Origin: Escherichia phage vB_EcoM_G4507
Reading direction: 5' to 3' (one strand)
Length of the DNA stretch: 64,000 nt
Sequence record: NC_054919.1
Each line of letters opens with the position of its first letter. Position 1 is the first letter of the stretch. The notes under the pieces are model-generated. The model was not told where the DNA came from and did not search any database. It saw nothing but the letters and a program-made list of their open reading frames with translations. The position numbers and the translations under genes were made by a program. Positions 5,152 to 43,588 of this stretch are shown here, piece by piece.

Positions 5152-5769
5152 ATGTACCACTTTGTATATGAAACAACAAATCTAATAAATGGTAAAAAGT
5201 ATATAGGAAAACACTCTACTGATGACTTGAATGATGGTTACCTTGGTTCCGGTAAGGCAATTCAGCAGGCTATAAAGAAATATGGTGAAAACAATTTCTC
5301 TAGAACAATACTAAAAGAGTTTAAAACTTCCGAAGAAGCGTACATGTATGAAGAAGAAATTATAACTCCTGAAATAATAAAAAGCAAAAATTATTATAAT
5401 ATGAAACCTGGTGGAATTGGTGGAATTGTTATGACTACAGAGGTTATAGCAAAGATGAAAGAATCTTCCGCTAAGAGATTTGAAAACTCACCGGGCACGG
5501 TATTAGGTACAACTTGTTACACTAATGGAACTAAAAATATTTTTATTAAACCTGGAGAACTTGTTCCAGAAGGATTTGTAAAAGGAATGGTTCATCCTAA
5601 TAGAAAGTCCAGAAAAGGATGTAAAGTCAAACCGACTACCACAGGAACTTTTTGGGTCAATAACGGTGCAATAAATAAATTAATACAACCAGACGGTATT
5701 ATTCCCGACGGATTTATTAAAGGTCGTCTCATGAAAAGAGATTCTAAAGGCAAATTTAGTAAGGCATAA
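5152..5769 (+). CDS. segD: Free-standing GIY-YIG homing endonuclease SegD-like
   Basis: 205 aa; N-terminal HFVYETTNLINGKKYIGK is a GIY-YIG motif; sits between inh and uvsW as in T4. Confidence 0.75.
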   Translation: MYHFVYETTNLINGKKYIGKHSTDDLNDGYLGSGKAIQQAIKKYGENNFSRTILKEFKTSEEAYMYEEEIITPEIIKSKNYYNMKPGGIGGIVMTTEVIAKMKESSAKRFENSPGTVLGTTCYTNGTKNIFIKPGELVPEGFVKGMVHPNRKSRKGCKVKPTTTGTFWVNNGAINKLIQPDGIIPDGFIKGRLMKRDSKGKFSKA

Positions 5770-30885: not shown

Positions 30886-31382
30886 AAAGTTTTAATAACC
30901 TCTATAATATCGTCTTGAGAAAGACCGTTAATTAAAATATGATGTTCAGCTGGAGATTTAGAAATTTTAAAGCATGCCTCAACATCTTCTGCCATATCCG
31001 ATGCACTACGATTTGGATTACTAATCCCAAGGCGATGTTTTCCCGTCAAAGGATTAACGATGATATAGCATTTGCAGCTATTGATATGAACATTGGGTTG
31101 AGTCTGATTAATGAACACTTCACAATCATACTTAGCGAGTTGATTTTCTAAAAAGACTTTCATCTCTTCAACCGCATCAGGAAGCATATCACGGGCTTGC
31201 TCAAGACGACGATTTCGATATTCTTTAATGGTCGTTTTCCGCTTGACTTGTTTAGCTAAATCTTTCTTAAGATCAGTGATATATCCAACTCGACGATTTC
31301 CTTTAAATACAGAAATCCCATCTGTAGTATCACCGTATGCTTCAACGACCATTTCAGTAGTAATACGCTGCAAATCCATCAT
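30876..31382 (-). CDS. alc: Alc, host transcription terminator for cytosine-containing DNA
   Basis: 168 aa (T4 Alc 167 aa); directly upstream of rnlA as in T4; preceded by early promoter. Confidence 0.75.
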   Translation of the reverse strand: MMDLQRITTEMVVEAYGDTTDGISVFKGNRRVGYITDLKKDLAKQVKRKTTIKEYRNRRLEQARDMLPDAVEEMKVFLENQLAKYDCEVFINQTQPNVHINSCKCYIIVNPLTGKHRLGISNPNRSASDMAEDVEACFKISKSPAEHHILINGLSQDDIIEVIKTLCM

Positions 31383-31386
31383 AAAG

Positions 31387-31440
31387 TCCTCATGTTATGC
31401 CAGTAAGACTACTATAACACAACACGAGGGACTTGTAAAC
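31387..31440 (-). promoter_or_regulatory. Early promoter plus leader, copy 2 of the 54-nt repeat (GTTTAC, 18 nt, TATAGT)
   Basis: Identical to 16133-16186 except one substitution. Confidence 0.6.
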
Positions 31441-31443
31441 AGC

Positions 31444-33031
<1,588 letters not shown>

Positions 33032-33039
33032 AATAAAAT

Positions 33040-33053
33040 GGGCCTTGCGGCCC
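33040..33053. terminator. Hairpin gggcc-ttgc-ggccc between nrdB and denA
   Basis: Perfect 5-bp GC stem with tetraloop. Confidence 0.5.
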
Positions 33054-33058
33054 ACTCC

Positions 33059-34237
33059 TTAAAAGTATTTTTTAAAACTCATCATAACTTTATCATCAAC
33101 ATCATTATCAATCTGTGCAACAAGGTAAGATGACAGTTCTACTTCTTGTGGCGCGGATTGAACATTATCAGAATTAAGATATTCACGAATCCAAGGATAC
33201 GGATGTTTAACCGGAGCATCGGTAATTGGGCATGGAAGACCACACTGTTTCATACGAGATACAGTTAAGTAATCAATAAAGCTCCACATGCTATTTGTAT
33301 TTAATCCAGGAACATCGCCGTCTTTAAATAAATGAACTGCCCAATCTTTTTCTTGGCGGTTAACTTCCATGAAAATATCAACTGCTTCTTGTTCACACTC
33401 TTGAGCAATTTTAACCCATTCATCGCCATCAGTGCCAAGTTGAAGTTGACGAATAATATATTGGGTGCCTTTAAGGTGAAGCTGCTCATCACGTGCAATG
33501 AACTTCATAATCTTGGCATTACCTTCCATGATTTCCATGTTTTTATGGAAGTTAAAGGTACATGCGAAAGATACATAAAAACGAATAGCTTCCAATGCGT
33601 TGATTACATGCAAACAGAGGTAAAGAGATTTCATTAGCTCACGCTTCCAATATGTCTCATGCTCAATAGCATCTTCAATAACGTCTTCGTCTGCATTAAT
33701 TTCTTTTTGGTATTCGATATCAGCTTTAGCGTTTTCCCAATAACGAGTTTTAATCAGAACATCATCATAATAACGTCCAATGGATTCAGCACGTTTCATA
33801 ATAGCTTCATCTAATACAATTTCATCAAATACCTTCGATGGATCAGTATAAAGATTTCGCATGATATGTGTATATGAACGGCTGTGAATAGTTTCACTAA
33901 AAGTCCACGTAGCAACCCATGTATCAAGGCTTGGGTCTGAAATTAATGACATAAGTACAGCAGACGGCGCACGACCCTGAATGCTATCCAAAAGTGATTG
34001 ATACTTCAGATTATTAGTAAAAATATTTTGCTGATACTGAGGAAGCTTATTAAACTGTGCAGCATCCATCATCAAGTTTACTTCTTCAGGACGCCAGAAA
34101 AATGATAATTGCTTTTCGGTTAAATCTTCAAAAACTTTATGACGTTGAATATCATAACGCGCAATACCAAGACCTGAACCAAAAAACATAGGTTCTTTTA
34201 AAACATCAACTGGATTTGTATTAAAAACTGTGCTCAT
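33059..34237 (-). CDS. nrdB: Ribonucleotide reductase small (beta) subunit, uninterrupted
   Basis: 392 aa continuous ORF with diiron/tyrosyl-radical R2 features; no intron. Confidence 0.95.
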   Translation of the reverse strand: MSTVFNTNPVDVLKEPMFFGSGLGIARYDIQRHKVFEDLTEKQLSFFWRPEEVNLMMDAAQFNKLPQYQQNIFTNNLKYQSLLDSIQGRAPSAVLMSLISDPSLDTWVATWTFSETIHSRSYTHIMRNLYTDPSKVFDEIVLDEAIMKRAESIGRYYDDVLIKTRYWENAKADIEYQKEINADEDVIEDAIEHETYWKRELMKSLYLCLHVINALEAIRFYVSFACTFNFHKNMEIMEGNAKIMKFIARDEQLHLKGTQYIIRQLQLGTDGDEWVKIAQECEQEAVDIFMEVNRQEKDWAVHLFKDGDVPGLNTNSMWSFIDYLTVSRMKQCGLPCPITDAPVKHPYPWIREYLNSDNVQSAPQEVELSSYLVAQIDNDVDDKVMMSFKKYF

Positions 34238-34288
34238 AAATTTTCCGCTTAGTTAATAGATAGTGACTCGTCCATGAGTCAAATTATA

Positions 34289-36553
34289 TCATAATTTACA
34301 GGATGAACAATCTTCAGCTTTTGGAGTTTCTATTTCATAATCATCAGTACCAGAACCATCACGGGTATTATGATAATAGAAATTTTTTCCGCCAAAATAC
34401 CAAAAATACAAAAGGTCATCAATCATTATTGACATTGGAACCTTGCCTTTAGGGAAGATTTGGGGGTCATAATATGTATTCGCTGAAGCTGATTGACACA
34501 CCCATTTCAGCATAATAGCTACCTGCGTAAGATAAGGTTTATTACCTTTCTTAGCTAATTTCCATGTATAATCATAGAGGTCTATGTTATGCTCAATATT
34601 GGGCACGACTTGATTAAAGGAGCCCTCTTTTGATTCTTTAACAGAGACTGGTCCACGTGGAGGCTCGATACCGTTTGTACTGTTAGAAACTTGGGAAGAT
34701 GACTCACATGGCATAAGTGCTGATAATGTGCTATTACGGATGCCAAAGAGCTTAAGGTCTTCCCGCAGCGACGACCAGTCACAAACGTATTTTGGAGCTG
34801 CGATTTGGTCAATCTTTTTATTGTACCAGTCGATAGGTAATTCGCCTCGAGACCAACGAGTGTCTGAATAATATTCGCAAGGTCCTTTTTCTTTGGCGAG
34901 CTTAATGGATGCTTTAATGAGTCCATACTGTAATCTCTCAAATAGTTCATGTGTTAAATCGTTAGCATCTTCATAAGAAGCAAAGTTACTTGCCAGCCAA
35001 GCTGCATAGTTGGTAACACCTACACCGAGGTTACGACGCTTTTTGGCTTTTTCTGCTTCAGGAACCGGATATCCTTGGTAATCCAAAAGATTATCAAGAG
35101 CACGAACTTGGACTTCTGCCAATTCATTAATTTTATCTTGGTCTTGCCAATCAAAGTTATCCAGCACAAATGCTGATAACGTGCACAATCCAATTTCAGC
35201 ATCAGGACTATTCACATCATTTGTTGGAATAGCAATTTCACAGCACAAGTTACTCTGACGAATAGGTGCCTTTTCACGAATAAACGGAGTATAGTTATTC
35301 GTATTATCAATGAACTGTACATAAATCCTTGCTGTTCCTGAACGTTCAGTCATGAGCAATTCAAATAGTTCACGGGCTTTAATACGCTTTTTACGAATAT
35401 TAGGGTCTTTTTCTGCTGCTTCGTACAATTCACGGAAACGGTCTTGGTCTTTAAAATAAGAATAATAAAGTTCGCCACCCATTTCATGCGGACTAAACAA
35501 AGTAATGTAATCGTTCTTTCCGAATCGTTCCATCATTAGGTCATTCAGCTGGACGCCATAATCCATATGACGGATACGGTTTTCTTCTACACCTTTGTTA
35601 TTTTTCAAAACGAGAAGATTTTCAACTTCCAAATGCCAAATAGGATAATAAGCAGTAGCAGCGCCGCCACGAATTCCGCCCTGTGAACATGATTTAACAG
35701 CAGTCTGAAAATGTTTCCAAAAAGGAATAACCCCAGTATGGCGTACTTCACCCATGCCAATCTTAGAACCTTCGGCACGAATCATACCAACGTTAATACC
35801 AATTCCAGCGCGTTTAGAGATATATTCAACAATCGAAGCGGAAGCCTTATTGATAGACTTCAGCGAATCACCTGCCTCAATAACAACACATGAACTAAAC
35901 TGTCGAGTCGGAGTACGACAACCAGCCATAATAGGAGTTGGTAATGAAATCTGTCGAGTAGATACTGCTTCATAAAAACGAATAACATGTTTTAATCTAT
36001 CAACAGGTTCATCTTGATGCAATGCCATTCCAATAGTCATAAATGCAAACTGCGGAGTTTCATAAATTTGACCAGTGGTTTTATCTTTAACTAAATATTT
36101 TTCTTTTAATTGCATCGCCCCGGAATAAGTAAATTCCATATCCCGCTCGTGCTTAATTTTTGATTCTAAAAATGTAATTTCTTCTGCTGAATATTTTGAC
36201 AACAATTCAGGGTCATATTTACCTGCATTTACACAGTAAGAAATATGGTCAATAAATGAACGTGGTTCATACTGCCCATAAACATGCTTACGAAGAGCAA
36301 ACATTAAACAGCGTGCAGCTACATATTGATAATCAGGTTCTTCAACCGAAATAGAATTCGCAGCAGCCTTAATGACAATAGTCTGAATATCATCAGTTGT
36401 CATTCCATCACGGAGATATGATTTAATATTTTCATATAATTCATAAGGATCTACTGATGTTCCCTCAGATGCCCAAGATAAAACTTTAATAATTTTTTGC
36501 GGGTCAAAGCTCTGAGAAACACCACTACTTTTGATAACATTAATTAATTGCAT
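34289..36553 (-). CDS. nrdA: Ribonucleotide reductase large (alpha) subunit
   Basis: 754 aa, same length as T4 NrdA; C-terminal CxxC redox pair (DCSSCKL). Confidence 0.95.
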   Translation of the reverse strand: MQLINVIKSSGVSQSFDPQKIIKVLSWASEGTSVDPYELYENIKSYLRDGMTTDDIQTIVIKAAANSISVEEPDYQYVAARCLMFALRKHVYGQYEPRSFIDHISYCVNAGKYDPELLSKYSAEEITFLESKIKHERDMEFTYSGAMQLKEKYLVKDKTTGQIYETPQFAFMTIGMALHQDEPVDRLKHVIRFYEAVSTRQISLPTPIMAGCRTPTRQFSSCVVIEAGDSLKSINKASASIVEYISKRAGIGINVGMIRAEGSKIGMGEVRHTGVIPFWKHFQTAVKSCSQGGIRGGAATAYYPIWHLEVENLLVLKNNKGVEENRIRHMDYGVQLNDLMMERFGKNDYITLFSPHEMGGELYYSYFKDQDRFRELYEAAEKDPNIRKKRIKARELFELLMTERSGTARIYVQFIDNTNNYTPFIREKAPIRQSNLCCEIAIPTNDVNSPDAEIGLCTLSAFVLDNFDWQDQDKINELAEVQVRALDNLLDYQGYPVPEAEKAKKRRNLGVGVTNYAAWLASNFASYEDANDLTHELFERLQYGLIKASIKLAKEKGPCEYYSDTRWSRGELPIDWYNKKIDQIAAPKYVCDWSSLREDLKLFGIRNSTLSALMPCESSSQVSNSTNGIEPPRGPVSVKESKEGSFNQVVPNIEHNIDLYDYTWKLAKKGNKPYLTQVAIMLKWVCQSASANTYYDPQIFPKGKVPMSIMIDDLLYFWYFGGKNFYYHNTRDGSGTDDYEIETPKAEDCSSCKL

Positions 36554-36870
36554 AAGTCCTCAACTTGAAAATCGTCTTTAAACAATCGGTTAACTATATG
36601 AGCTATTATATCACCATGACACGGCTTTGGTTTACATGTGCATCCTAGCCTCATTCCACGTAAAGGCTCTAAATGTGCTTTAGTTATTTCTCCGGATTTA
36701 ATTCGACGTATAAAATCTTTTTTGAATAATTCAATGGCAGCCTCCCGGCTGCCAGCATCTTTACCGACGTAATTTCCCCAAAATGTACCGCGGTGAATAT
36801 TAACATCAAAGTCGGATTTATATTTATTCACTACTCGGCATATACGGCCTGCGCGGTTGTAAGTGTTCAT
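36544..36870 (-). CDS. Hypothetical Cys/His-motif protein (nrdA.1 position)
   Basis: 108 aa; [14 protein letters not shown] cluster suggests metal binding. Confidence 0.55.
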
Positions 36871-37087
36871 ATTGTTCTTCCGTTAAAACAGTAATATCGT
36901 AGTAACAGTCAGAAGAAGTTTTAACTGTGGAAATTTTATTATCAAAATACTCACGGGTCATTTTATGAGTATAATATTTTTTGCCATAAATGATAATAGG
37001 CTGATTTGGTCCTGGAACTTCTAACTCACTTGGATTAGGAAGTGTAAAAAGAACTACACCAGAAGTATCTTTAAATCGTAAAATCAT
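36824..37087 (-). CDS. Hypothetical protein (nrdA.2 position)
   Basis: 87-aa ORF. Confidence 0.5.
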
Positions 37088-37110
37088 AAATCCTCACAAT
37101 TAAATTAAAA

Positions 37111-37422
37111 TTACACCGCCATTTTTCCTTTCAAGACGCCGTGGGGCTGATAATCTTTGAGAACGAAATCTTTAGGCCTGAGTTTAAGAATGTATTCCAA
37201 TTGTTCTTTAGTAGAAAGATAGCGGAATTTATAAGGCAATCCGCCTATTACCAGTTCACAAAGCTCTTTAGGTTCACGACGCAAAATTTCTTTACATTGT
37301 TCTACGTGATTCATATAGATATGAGTATTACCACCGGAAAATATCAAATCTCCCGGAATAAGATTACACATCTTAGCTACAATATGAACTAACGTAGCAT
37401 ATGATGCAATATTAAATGGAAG
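37111..37422 (-). CDS. td: Thymidylate synthase, exon 2 (103 codons)
   Basis: Begins LPFNIASYATLVHIVAKMC, the conserved ThyA segment following DVFLG; 183 + 103 = 286 aa as in T4 TS. Confidence 0.9.
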   Translation of the reverse strand, partial: LPFNIASYATLVHIVAKMCNLIPGDLIFSGGNTHIYMNHVEQCKEILRREPKELCELVIGGLPYKFRYLSTKEQLEYILKLRPKDFVLKDYQPHGVLKGKMAV

Positions 37423-38438
37423 CATTATGTTCAGATAAGGTCGTTAATCTTACCCCGGAATTATATCCAGCTGCATGTCACCATGCAGATCAGACTATAT
37501 CTCCAACTTGTTAAAGCAAGTTGTCTATCGTTTCGAGTCACTTGACCCTACTCCCCAAAGGGATAGTCGTTAGGCATTTATGTAGAACCAATTCCATTTA
37601 TCAGATTTTACACGATAAGTAACTAATCCAGACGAAATTTTAAAATGTCTAGTTGCATCTGCTGCACAATCAAAAATAACCCCATCACATGAAATCTTTT
37701 TAATATTACTAGGCTTTTTACCTTTCATCTTTTCTGATATTTTAGATTTAGTTATGTCTGAATGCTTATGATTAAAGAATGAATTATTTTCACCTGAACG
37801 ATTTCTGCATTTACTACAAGTATAAGCAGAAGTTTGTATGCGAACACCGCACTTACAAAACTTATGGGTTTCTGGATTCCAACGCCCGTTTTTACTTCCG
37901 GGTTTACTGTAAAGAGCTTTCCGACCATCAGGTCCAAGTTTAAGCATCTTAGCTTTAACAGTTTCAGAACGTTTCTTAATAATTTCTTCTTTTAATGGAT
38001 GCGTAGAACATGTATCACCAAACGTTGCATCAGCAATATTGTATCCATTAATTTTAGAATTAAGCTCTTTAATCCAAAAATTTTCTCGTTCAATAATCAA
38101 ATCTTTCTCATATGGAATTTCTTCCAAAATAGAACATTCAAACACATTACCATGTTTGTTAAAAGACCTCTGAAGCTTTATAGAAGAATGGCATCCTTTT
38201 TCTAAATCTTTAAAATGCCTCTTCCATCTCTTTTCAAAATCTTTAGCACTTCCTACATATACTTTATTGTTTAAAGTATTTTTAATCTGATAAATTCCGC
38301 TTTTCATAAATACCTCTTTAAATATAGAAGTATTTATTAAAGGGCAGTCCTACAATTTAGCACGGGATTGTCTACTAGAGAGGTTCCCCGTTTAGATAGA
38401 TTACAAGTATAAGTCACCTTATACTCAGGCCTCAATTA
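37423..38438 (-). mobile_element. Group I self-splicing intron in td (1016 nt) with embedded homing endonuclease ORF
   Basis: 5' end TAATTGAGGCCTGAGTATAAGGTGACTTATACTTGTAATCTATCTAAACGGGGAACC matches the remembered T4 td intron; ends ...CATAATG before exon 2. Confidence 0.9.
37570..38307 (-). CDS. I-TevI: I-TevI intron-encoded GIY-YIG homing endonuclease
   Basis: 245 aa; MKSGIYQIKNTLNNKVYVGSAKDFEKRWKRH GIY-YIG domain and C-terminal zinc finger/HTH region. Confidence 0.95.
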   Translation of the reverse strand: MKSGIYQIKNTLNNKVYVGSAKDFEKRWKRHFKDLEKGCHSSIKLQRSFNKHGNVFECSILEEIPYEKDLIIERENFWIKELNSKINGYNIADATFGDTCSTHPLKEEIIKKRSETVKAKMLKLGPDGRKALYSKPGSKNGRWNPETHKFCKCGVRIQTSAYTCSKCRNRSGENNSFFNHKHSDITKSKISEKMKGKKPSNIKKISCDGVIFDCAADATRHFKISSGLVTYRVKSDKWNWFYINA

Positions 38439-38987
38439 ACCCAAGAAAACATCTACTGATCGTTGATACCACTGCAAATCCAAATAGCCATTACGCACAT
38501 TAAACTGATAGAACATATGACAAGGCGGTAATGCCATTTGCTTAAGTTCTGCCGGATTCCATGCTGAAACAATTTGACGCCTATCATTTGGCAGTTTTTT
38601 AATACGATCAATAACTTCTATAATTTGGTCTACACCGCCAAAATCACGCCATTGTTTTCCATAAATTGGACCAAGTTCACCGCTATGGTATCCTAAATCT
38701 TTTGCTTGATTTTCGTAATTTTCATCCCAGACTGTTTTGCCTTGAATTAATGAATTATGTTGAATTAATCGCAAATCATTTACGTTAGTACTTCCTGATA
38801 AGAACCACAATAACTCAGAAATACATGCATTCCAGGCGAGCTTCTTAGTTGTTACTGCAGGAAAACCTTTAGTTAAATCCCAGCGTAATTTAGTACCGAA
38901 CAAAGCAATTGTTCCTGTGCCCGTTCGGTCATCAGTTTCATAACCATTTTCAAAAATGTCTTTAATTAAATCTTGGTATTGTTTCAT
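38439..38987 (-). CDS. td: Thymidylate synthase, exon 1 (183 codons)
   Basis: MKQYQDLIKDIFENGYETDDRTGTGT... ends ...QWYQRSVDVFLG at the 5' splice site. Confidence 0.9.
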
Positions 38988-39032
38988 TTAGTACCTTATA
39001 TAAATTATAATACATTTTATGAAGCTAAATAA

Positions 39033-39380
39033 TCAATACGGTTTAGCATCAAATTTTCTCTCAATTTCAGGCGTGAAATATAATTCTTTACCGCGTTTGG
39101 AAAAGCGACCAATAATATGATAATTATTCTCATCAAACGTGATATTACCAATATCCATAGCTTTCAACCAAATATCGATATTTCTATCCAGCTTTATGTC
39201 AAAATTCCAATACGGAGAACTATTACCGAAAATACTGCAAGCGGATTCAGTGAAACAACTGCTATAAATCTTGTCTTTAGGAACTACTAATTGATAGACA
39301 CCTTTAATAAACTGAGGACCCTGCCATTTAGGTTGTTTCTCATCTTTTTCTAATAGAATAGGGTAATAATTAAAATTCAT
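39033..39380 (-). CDS. Hypothetical 115-aa protein of unknown function, inserted between frd and td
   Basis: Intact ORF MNFNYYPILLEKDEKQPKWQGPQF...; no motif I recognise; occupies a position where, from memory, T4 frd and td overlap directly. Confidence 0.55.
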   Translation of the reverse strand: MNFNYYPILLEKDEKQPKWQGPQFIKGVYQLVVPKDKIYSSCFTESACSIFGNSSPYWNFDIKLDRNIDIWLKAMDIGNITFDENNYHIIGRFSKRGKELYFTPEIERKFDAKPY

Positions 39381-39399: not shown

Positions 39400-40226
<827 letters not shown>

Positions 40227-41926: not shown

Positions 41927-42835
41927 TTAAAGGTCATTCAAAAGGTCATCCAGGTCCGTGTCATCAGCACTAGATGAACTGCCAGAGCTTGAGCTCATAA
42001 AATCATCTTCAGTTTTTGTATTGAAGTCATCAACATTGAATGCATCCAAATCATCAGCAACTTTATCAGCTTTCTTAGCAGCAGTTGCAGCGGCACCGCC
42101 CATCACAGCAGTTCCCATAACTTGACCGAATTTAGTGCTCAGTTCTTCAAATGATTTGAATTTATCTTTAGAAGTCATTTCAGAAAGGTCAACCATTTGT
42201 TCGAACAGTTCTTTCTGAAAAGATTCATCATCAATGTTTGGAATCGCAGATTGATTCAGGAATTTAGATTCATCGTAGTTACTAAATCCAGAAACCTGTT
42301 TAACTTTCAGTACAAAGTTAGCACCTTCCCACGGACAAGTTACATCAACCGGAGTTTCACCCATTTCAACATCAACTGCAATCATTGCATTGATTTTATC
42401 CCAGATTTTCTTACCGAAACGGTATTTAAATACTTTACCTTCATTTTCTGGAGCAGCTGGGTCTTTTACAACAAGAATGTTAGCCCAGTAAGAAGTTTTA
42501 CGTTTAACAAGACTGTACTCTTTATTGTCAGTGTTGTACAGATCATTTTTACTGATGTATTGACATACTGGGCAAGAATCGTAATCACCGTGGGTAGATG
42601 AACAGTTTTCAATATACCATTTACCATTTTTCTTGAAACCGTGATTTACAAGAATTGCGAATGGTGCTTGTTCATCATTTTTAGACGGAAGAAAACGAAT
42701 TACTGCTTGACCGTTACCCGCATTGTCGAGTTTCAGTTTCCACTCGCCTTTATCTTCAGAAGAAAAACCACCTTTATTTCCAGCCAGTTTAGCCATTTGC
42801 GCAGCGAGTTCAGCAGTAGATTTACGTTTAAACAT
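41927..42835 (-). CDS. 32: Single-stranded DNA-binding protein gp32
   Basis: 302 aa; [50 protein letters not shown] and acidic C-terminal tail match T4 gp32. Confidence 0.95.
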
Positions 42836-42934: not shown

Positions 42935-43588
42935 TTAATACTTACAAGATTTCACAGTTTCAATGAAAACATTTTTAGCTTTCTGTGAATCAATATTTAA
43001 AATTTTTCTATAAGCCTTTAACTTTATAGAATAATTATTCCAGACTAAATTATCAGTCTGTTCATCATGTTTATCAATTATATTTAAAAATGAATCAAGC
43101 AAGATAAACGTCTCAAACGAAATTATGTTCGATTGCAGAAGTTTAAAAATATAACTTGACTGAACCTTTGGATTATATTCAAAGATTTCTTTAAAAGCAG
43201 AAACTTCAACTTTTTTACTAAAATAGTAAATATTGCGAATATCTTCTTCAAACTTAAACTTAATTTGCTTTAAGCGTCCGATATATTCACGATAAAACAC
43301 AAGTGCATCAGCGTCAGAGATGTCACCAATCCAAGCATCTTGGTTAGCAACCAAATTACTTATAAAGATTAAAGCAAGTTCCTTTAATTTATATTTTTCT
43401 GATAACTTCTGGAAAAAATACTTATCCCTTCGCTTTTGATAAGCGGCATCAGACACCCGCATGCACCAATTATACTTAATTACATCATACTTTCCATTCA
43501 TATGCTGTTTTATCATTAAGTATAATTTATAAACTGATTTACCATCAATGTATCTTTCACCACCAGCAGGCATGCGGAGTTTAATCAT
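42935..43588 (-). CDS. 59: Helicase loader gp59
   Basis: 217 aa, same length as T4 gp59; no segG between 32 and 59. Confidence 0.9.
   Translation of the reverse strand: MIKLRMPAGGERYIDGKSVYKLYLMIKQHMNGKYDVIKYNWCMRVSDAAYQKRRDKYFFQKLSEKYKLKELALIFISNLVANQDAWIGDISDADALVFYREYIGRLKQIKFKFEEDIRNIYYFSKKVEVSAFKEIFEYNPKVQSSYIFKLLQSNIISFETFILLDSFLNIIDKHDEQTDNLVWNNYSIKLKAYRKILNIDSQKAKNVFIETVKSCKY

Follow-up and report, generated by a model that had tools for sequence, protein, structure and literature searches.

An archetypal td group I intron encoding I-TevI, and a vacant nrdB intron site, in a T4-related Escherichia phage

The DNA analysed here, referred to throughout as the window, is a stretch of 64,000 nucleotides from Escherichia phage vB_EcoM_G4507 (NC_054919.1). 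On its minus strand, frd (40008..39400) is followed by an open reading frame of 115 amino acids (39380..39033) and then by td, which is divided into exon 1 (38987..38439; 549 nt or 183 codons, ending in DVFLG), a group I intron (38438..37423; 1016 nt) and exon 2 (37422..37111; 312 nt including the stop codon, beginning with LPFNIASY). The intron contains an ORF for the endonuclease I-TevI (38307..37570; 738 nt, encoding 245 amino acids plus the stop), which is looped out of P6a. Beyond td, still on the minus strand, lie nrdA.2 (37087..36824), nrdA.1 (36870..36544), nrdA (36553..34289), an uninterrupted nrdB (34237..33059; 1179 nt, 392 amino acids), denA (33055..32621), which adjoins nrdB, and rnlA (32604..31444). 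A free-standing gene, segE (5152..5769), which encodes a GIY-YIG homing endonuclease, is located on the plus strand upstream of uvsW.

The boundaries of the td intron can be placed to the base. Read on the minus strand, the 5′ junction is ...GATGTTTTCTTGGGT/TAATTGAGGCC..., or in a second rendering ...GTTTTCTTGGGT/TAATTGAGGCCTGAG..., with 38439 as the last base of exon 1 and 38438 as the first base of the intron, and the insertion point falls after the GGU codon of Gly183. The 3′ junction is ...ACATAATG/CTTCCATTTAAT, or ...CTGAACATAATG/CTTCCATTTAATATT..., where the last intron base is the G at 37423 and exon 2 starts at 37422. Removal of the intron leaves the two exons in frame and yields an ORF of 861 nt encoding 286 amino acids. 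The thymidylate synthase translated from the joined exons aligns with the entire Pfam Thymidylat_synt profile (positions 1-266 of 266, 318.8 bits), and it is 94.4% identical to the T4 protein without gaps. The preliminary description of this DNA had td split as in T4, with DVFLG and LPFNIASY on either side of a 1016-nt intron, and both the minus-strand junctions and the spliced ORF agree exactly with that account.

Deposited genomes often annotate td as two coding sequences, each named thymidylate synthase, together with a hypothetical protein or homing endonuclease. In the record of phage G10400, nrdB is likewise entered as two separate coding sequences. Upstream of td, the 115-amino-acid ORF at 39033-39380 on the minus strand separates frd from td and corresponds to a 417-nt gap on the T4 side of the alignment, frd and td of T4 abutting or overlapping with no ORF between them. 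The only family match of this ORF is to phrog_1928, whose function is unknown, and a Pfam search with it returned no matches. The same ORF is present in G10400 and in phage 4E10.

The sequence on either side of the I-TevI ORF corresponds to the two halves of a group I ribozyme core, which we take to belong to subgroup IA2, as for the td intron of T4. The 5′ half (38334..38438, minus strand) supplies the guide sequence, P2, the 5′ strand of P3, P4, P5 and the start of P6/P6a, and the 3′ half (37423..37573, minus strand) supplies P6′, P7, P7.1, P7.2, P3′, P8, P9, P9.1, P9.2 and the terminal G, at 37423. In minus-strand coordinates, P2 occupies 38424..38407; P3 is formed by 38400..38395 and 37529..37524 (P3′), P4 by 38391..38386 and 38367..38362, P5 by 38381..38379 and 38373..38371, and P7 by 37568..37563 and 37498..37493; P8 and P9 occupy 37523..37504 and 37488..37471. 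P1 is formed by the last seven nucleotides of exon 1, CUUGGGU (38445..38439), paired with the guide GCCUGAG (38430..38424), and it contains the wobble pair expected at the splice site, between U(-1) and G9. This pairing was also recovered by a free-energy fold of the window sequence. Whether the td interval would fold into a P1-P9 core had been raised as a point on which the preliminary reading turned, and a pair-by-pair check of the window found that P1, P2-P5, P7, P7.1, P7.2, P8, P9, P9.1 and P9.2 consist throughout of canonical or G-U pairs. P6/P6a, which lay outside this check, was recovered in the free-energy fold of an ORF-less allele described below. The stop codon of the I-TevI ORF overlaps the 3′ strand of P6.

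An Infernal search against the Rfam group I intron models had been proposed as a means of confirming the intron, and in this respect the expectation failed, as a scan of the whole window at the gathering score gave no group I intron match at all. When thresholds were relaxed, a partial match to RF00028 appeared at 37471..37701 with 42.5 bits, below the curated gathering score of 50 bits for this family. Only P3′, P8, J8/7 and P9 are correctly threaded in this match, and the 5′ half of the model is made to fit the terminal part of the I-TevI ORF. The miss at the gathering score is due to the 738-nt ORF in P6a, which splits the halves of the core. A natural allele of the intron without this ORF, found in Yersinia phage PYps55T (MT515756.1), serves as a proxy for the window intron. 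Its 320 nt consist of nt 1-105 of the window intron, with one mismatch at nt 94 in the P6a arm, and a last segment of 207 nt that is identical in both; this correspondence was established by comparing prefixes and suffixes, because a global MAFFT alignment misplaced the deletion. Thus the PYps55T intron has the same core as the window intron and lacks about 696 nt that cover nearly all of I-TevI, and for that reason it passes Rfam where the window intron does not (RF00028, 66.9 bits over model positions 1-253, against the cut-off of 50). Once the ORF-less allele had passed RF00028, the null scan was dropped as evidence against a td intron.

Free-energy folding leads to a similar picture. In the ORF-less allele, P2-P6, P7.1, P7.2, P8, P9 and P9.1 were recovered (z -2.25), and folding of the 3′ 143 nt of the window intron recovered P7.1, P7.2, P8, P9 and P9.1 (z -3.31). 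Covariation lends no support here, as the td introns are about 99% identical to each other: of the 195 full-length examples in the phage collection, 185 match that of the window at 99% identity or more. The score of the ORF-less allele, the helix check and the free-energy folds are three independent lines, and all of them point to an intact core in the td interval.

Shortened forms of the intron are found in nature. In addition to the 320-nt intron of PYps55T, from which nearly all of I-TevI has been lost, the td intron of phage G28 is 445 nt long and retains a 55-amino-acid stub of I-TevI, and further records repeat the pattern of 32% or 47% intron coverage.

The endonuclease of the window is of full length. 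An I-TevI of 245 amino acids within the td intron had been described previously, and the ORF at 38307..37570 encodes a protein that matches T4 I-TevI at 244 of 245 positions, the sole change being A219T in the DNA-binding domain. Pfam places the GIY-YIG domain (PF01541) at residues 3-90, the zinc finger (I-TevI_ZnF, PF22635) at 149-179 and the DNA-binding domain (I-TevI_DNA-bd, PF20987) at 192-242, and the structures matched in the PDB are 1mk0 and 1ln0 for residues 1-97 and 1i3j for residues 130-245. Reading of the translation finds GIY at 4-6, YVG at 17-19, R27, E75, N90 and the four zinc-finger cysteines.

The sequence around the I-TevI start codon resembles the control region known from T4. 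In a hairpin at 38307..38336 on the minus strand, the Shine-Dalgarno sequence (GAGG, 38316..38313) is base-paired, as is the first base of the start codon (A, 38307), and a 56-nt fold of this region has a free energy of -16.6 kcal/mol (z -4.88; none of 200 shuffled sequences folded as well). Such a hairpin confines translation of I-TevI to late transcripts, and the protein represses its own late promoter by binding to an operator that overlaps it (PMC2988022). An operator-like and late-promoter-like stretch, GGACTGCCCTTTAATAAATAC, lies upstream of I-TevI at 38330..38350 on the minus strand, and by eye it is similar to the td homing site that spans the insertion point. By identity with T4, the hairpin and the sequence 38350..38330 probably have the same functions in this phage.

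The T-run at about nt 92 of the intron, at window position 38347 in the operator/late-promoter stretch, has one extra T in the RefSeq genome of T4, NC_000866.4. The intron measures 1016 nt in the window, in T4 as originally sequenced (M12742), in T4T and in the remaining full-length matches listed; the exceptions among those listed are JM17, with 1017 nt, and the T4 record OL964745, with 1004 nt. The extra T in NC_000866.4 reflects either variation between T4 stocks or an error made in sequencing the reference.

The window carries a very close copy of the td intron with I-TevI, the element on which the model of phage intron homing was founded. The T4 intron (NC_000866.4, 143547..144563) agrees with that of the window in its insertion point, in the placement of the ORF within P6a and in its helices, and its DNA is 99.6% identical. 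This comparison was made by alignment, the RefSeq T4 intron being 1017 nt long, and it reveals three substitutions and the single-T indel. One substitution is silent, in codon 44 of I-TevI, another produces A219T, and the third is a C to A change at intron nt 949, an unpaired joiner between P7′ and P9. Because the intron is 99.6% identical to that of T4 and 100% identical to that of G10400, its presence together with I-TevI reflects homology to the T4 element rather than chance.

It could be argued that this intron is a decayed relic, unable to splice or to move, with td reduced in effect to a pseudogene or the endonuclease inactive. The empty Rfam scan at the gathering score would be in keeping with this view, as would the existence of decayed relatives such as the ORF-less 320-nt intron of PYps55T and the 445-nt intron of G28 with its 55-amino-acid stub. 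However, outside the ORF region only the unpaired nt 949 distinguishes the core from that of the T4 intron, whose self-splicing is known from experiment, I-TevI is full length with one substitution and with its catalytic and zinc-finger residues intact, and the td exons remain in frame. We therefore consider decay very improbable, and regard the element as a canonical mobile intron.

Patterns of similarity in the td exons agree with this. Between T4 and the window, the td exons are 87-94% identical and the intron is 99.6% identical, and conservation of an intron so far beyond that of its host gene is known to mark recent horizontal spread. There are 34 differences in the 549 positions of exon 1, only one of them within the last 59 nt, and 41 in the 312 positions of exon 2. 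The same last 59 nt of exon 1 (38439-38497) show zero to one difference among the intron-bearing alleles of the window, T4, PYps55T and G28. In contrast, 4E10, whose td is intronless, shows 11 differences from the window over these 59 nt and none over the first 60 nt of exon 2. The flank pattern of the window td agrees with horizontal spread, since intron-bearing alleles share the end of exon 1 and the intronless allele of 4E10 does not.

Exon 1 of 4E10 ends in ...TTCCTCGGT/, versus ...TTCTTGGGT/ in the intron-bearing alleles, and the resulting replacement of CUUGGGU by CCUCGGU consists of synonymous changes in a leucine codon that would break two pairs of P1. The cleavage motif of I-TevI in intronless td is CNNNG, and the 4E10 allele keeps CAACG at the right distance for the cut. 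I-TevI cleaves intronless td at -23/-25 (PMC2988022), and the asymmetry of the flanks, which is confined to the exon 1 side, fits what co-conversion from a cut at this position would produce.

The situation at nrdB is different from that at td. The gene had been described as a continuous ORF of 392 amino acids at 33059-34237, and a single ORF with these limits is present on the minus strand. NrdB of the window is 92.2% identical to that of T4, which has 388 amino acids as compared with 392 here. When the gene is aligned with nrdB of T4 (598-nt intron) and of G10400 (1090-nt intron), the window shows a single large gap, at 33562/33561, where the sequence GCAT/GTACC lies within the cysteine codon of ...SFACTFNF.... 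The T-even nrdB intron inserts after GCGU in the same codon of SFACTFNF, whereas in the window this site is uninterrupted. The intron that encodes I-TevIII in RB3 and T4 thus has its target gene and site in the window without being there itself, and G10400 also carries an nrdB intron at this point.

Searches of the window by tblastn with I-TevIII (full and truncated), MobE and NrdB.1 returned no matches, and the gap between nrdA and nrdB measures only 51 nt (34238..34288), where T4 has mobE and nrdB.1. From the single alignment gap, the null tblastn search and the shortness of the nrdA-nrdB gap, we conclude that nrdB contains no hidden intron, and the comparison with the T4 insertion site that had been suggested earlier finds the window continuous there. 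An artefact of assembly or annotation is an extremely improbable explanation for either the split in td or the lack of one in nrdB, given that the td layout is found base for base in G10400 (100% over 1901 nt) and in 195 records overall, and that the continuous 1179-nt nrdB is also present in 4E10 and ACG-C40. The region at 33620-33760, which encodes approximately residues 160-205 of NrdB and lies directly upstream of the intron site, is rich in indels and highly variable, and a comparison of six phages shows three or more haplotypes there.

The preliminary description had also reported a free-standing segD and no segG. The first of these was a misidentification. The product of the gene at 5152..5769 is identical to T4 SegE at 202 of 205 positions (99%), and its resemblance to SegD is only 46% over 95 amino acids. 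Since T4 has segE at the same place, this gene does not distinguish the window phage from T4. The T4 locus of segD is between genes 23 and 24, and in the window, where gene 24 starts at 97, there is no room for it. The absence of segG was correctly noted, for gene 32 ends at 42835 and gene 59 begins at 42935, leaving a gap of 99 nt. Among queries for SegD, SegE, MobE, I-TevIII, nrdB.1 and DenA, a set that leaves out SegG and the other seg and mob products, no free-standing seg-type gene other than segE was found in the window. A GIY-YIG ORF of 144 amino acids at 32621..33055 was considered as a possible seg gene and set aside, as it encodes DenA (endonuclease II) and is 100% identical to the T4 protein.

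When the window is examined for five items of T4 gene content, namely the nrdB intron, mobE, nrdB.1, segD and segG, all five are absent. The identities of thymidylate synthase (94.4%) and NrdB (92.2%) to their T4 counterparts likewise uphold the view that this phage is a relative of T4 and not T4 itself. The nearest record is that of G10400 (MK327937.1, Tequatrovirus gee4507), which is collinear with the window and about 98% identical over its whole length, and which is 100% identical over td, its intron and its flanks (window 37000-39250). Nevertheless, G10400 has a 1090-nt nrdB intron encoding a full I-TevIII of 269 amino acids, preceded by an RB3-like flank of 200 nt, all of which the window lacks. 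On the basis of this nrdB intron, the window derives from a distinct phage closely related to G10400, and in the phage collection of August 2025 no record reaches 99% identity along the entire window.

The same mixed state occurs in ACG-C40 (JN986846.1), a member of a different species (Tequatrovirus c40) that is about 98% identical in the region and carries a full td intron (99.8% identical) along with an uninterrupted 1179-nt nrdB and no mobE. The full td intron is present in 195 records of the phage collection and the full nrdB intron in 85. A match of any extent to the nrdB intron is seen in 191 records, but at least 55 of these are Pectobacterium or Klebsiella phages, whose matches we take to be partial and to come from the endonuclease gene instead of the intron. 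This leaves at most about 136 enterobacterial T4-type records that could carry the nrdB intron, and by subtraction from 195 at least about 59 records with the td intron are without it. T2 and T6 also lack the nrdB intron (PMC1865063), and descriptions of how unevenly the three introns are spread among T-even phages date from 1987-1989 (cited in PMC2988022 and PMC1865063). The combination of a td intron with an intronless nrdB is thus common and ordinary, and has been known since the 1980s.

The sequence that flanks the nrdB site varies with intron status. Over positions -200..0, the intron-minus alleles of the window, 4E10 and ACG-C40 differ from each other at zero to two positions. The intron-plus allele of G10400 differs from that of RB3 at three positions in this interval and from the window at 59 of 201. 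The interval in question is window positions 33362-33622, approximately 200 nt upstream and 60 nt downstream of 33562/33561, and T4 shares with G10400 and RB3 only the portion from -60 to +60. Because I-TevIII cuts at -14/-16 (PMC1865063), this haplotype linked to intron status has the appearance of a patch left by co-conversion at the position of I-TevIII cleavage. The cluster of mismatches between the window and G10400 at 33500-33750 was also considered as a wholly T4-derived co-conversion, but that account fits only part of it, as G10400 is RB3-like rather than T4-like from -200 to -61.

One might therefore ask whether nrdB of the window was never invaded or has lost its intron. Secondary loss would have occurred in a G10400-like ancestor through recombination with an intronless phage, and there are observations that would accommodate it. 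On the rnlA-denA side the window is almost the same as G10400, with three mismatches in 31000-33000, yet in the 200 nt preceding the site the two differ at 59 of 201 positions, and there the window has the haplotype of 4E10 and ACG-C40 and G10400 has that of RB3; a patch of this kind can result from conversion in either direction. However, homing into an empty site is the direction known to proceed at high frequency (PMC1865063). The intron of G10400 and its flank match RB3 (three differences over -200..0), whereas the rest of its exon 1 is nearer to the window, with 15 differences as against 23 for RB3, and acquisition of the intron by G10400 on a backbone like that of the window would account for this pattern equally well or better. 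Either direction would fit the genomes compared, and loss is somewhat less likely than not.

A further consideration is whether the nrdB allele of the window might be refractory to I-TevIII. Compared with intron-bearing exons, it has eight differences within the 60 nt upstream of the site, including those at -2 and -5. In this interval it carries the haplotype of intronless phages, with A rather than G at -2 and six changes between about -30 and -47, and its C at -5 is absent from the five other nrdB alleles compared. We consider it unlikely that these changes confer resistance. If they did, the intron-minus state would be stably maintained despite an intron-bearing sibling, G10400, that is 98% identical and whose nrdB intron appears active, and the two phages would provide a natural example of homing-site immunity.

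Taken as a whole, the interval at 37423-38438 on the minus strand is almost certainly the canonical mobile td group I intron of T4-type phages, accompanied by an empty intron site in nrdB, in an ordinary Tequatrovirus near G10400. By analogy with T4, the td RNA would excise itself through guanosine-initiated transesterification, and I-TevI would be expressed only late in infection, as the hairpin would mask its ribosome-binding site and the protein would bind to its own operator at the late promoter. During mixed infection, I-TevI would cut an intronless td at positions 23 and 25 nt upstream of the insertion site, and repair from intron-bearing genomes would copy in the intron and the neighbouring exon sequence (mechanisms of splicing and homing are treated in PMC2988022, PMC1865063 and PMC2790892). 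In the same phage, nrdB is an empty site for the second T-even intron, having neither that intron nor mobE nearby.

The finding has little significance beyond correct annotation. In this regard, a negative Rfam scan at default thresholds should not be equated with the absence of an intron, as group I introns that bear ORFs are missed, and td is best annotated as one spliced gene rather than as two fragments each called thymidylate synthase.
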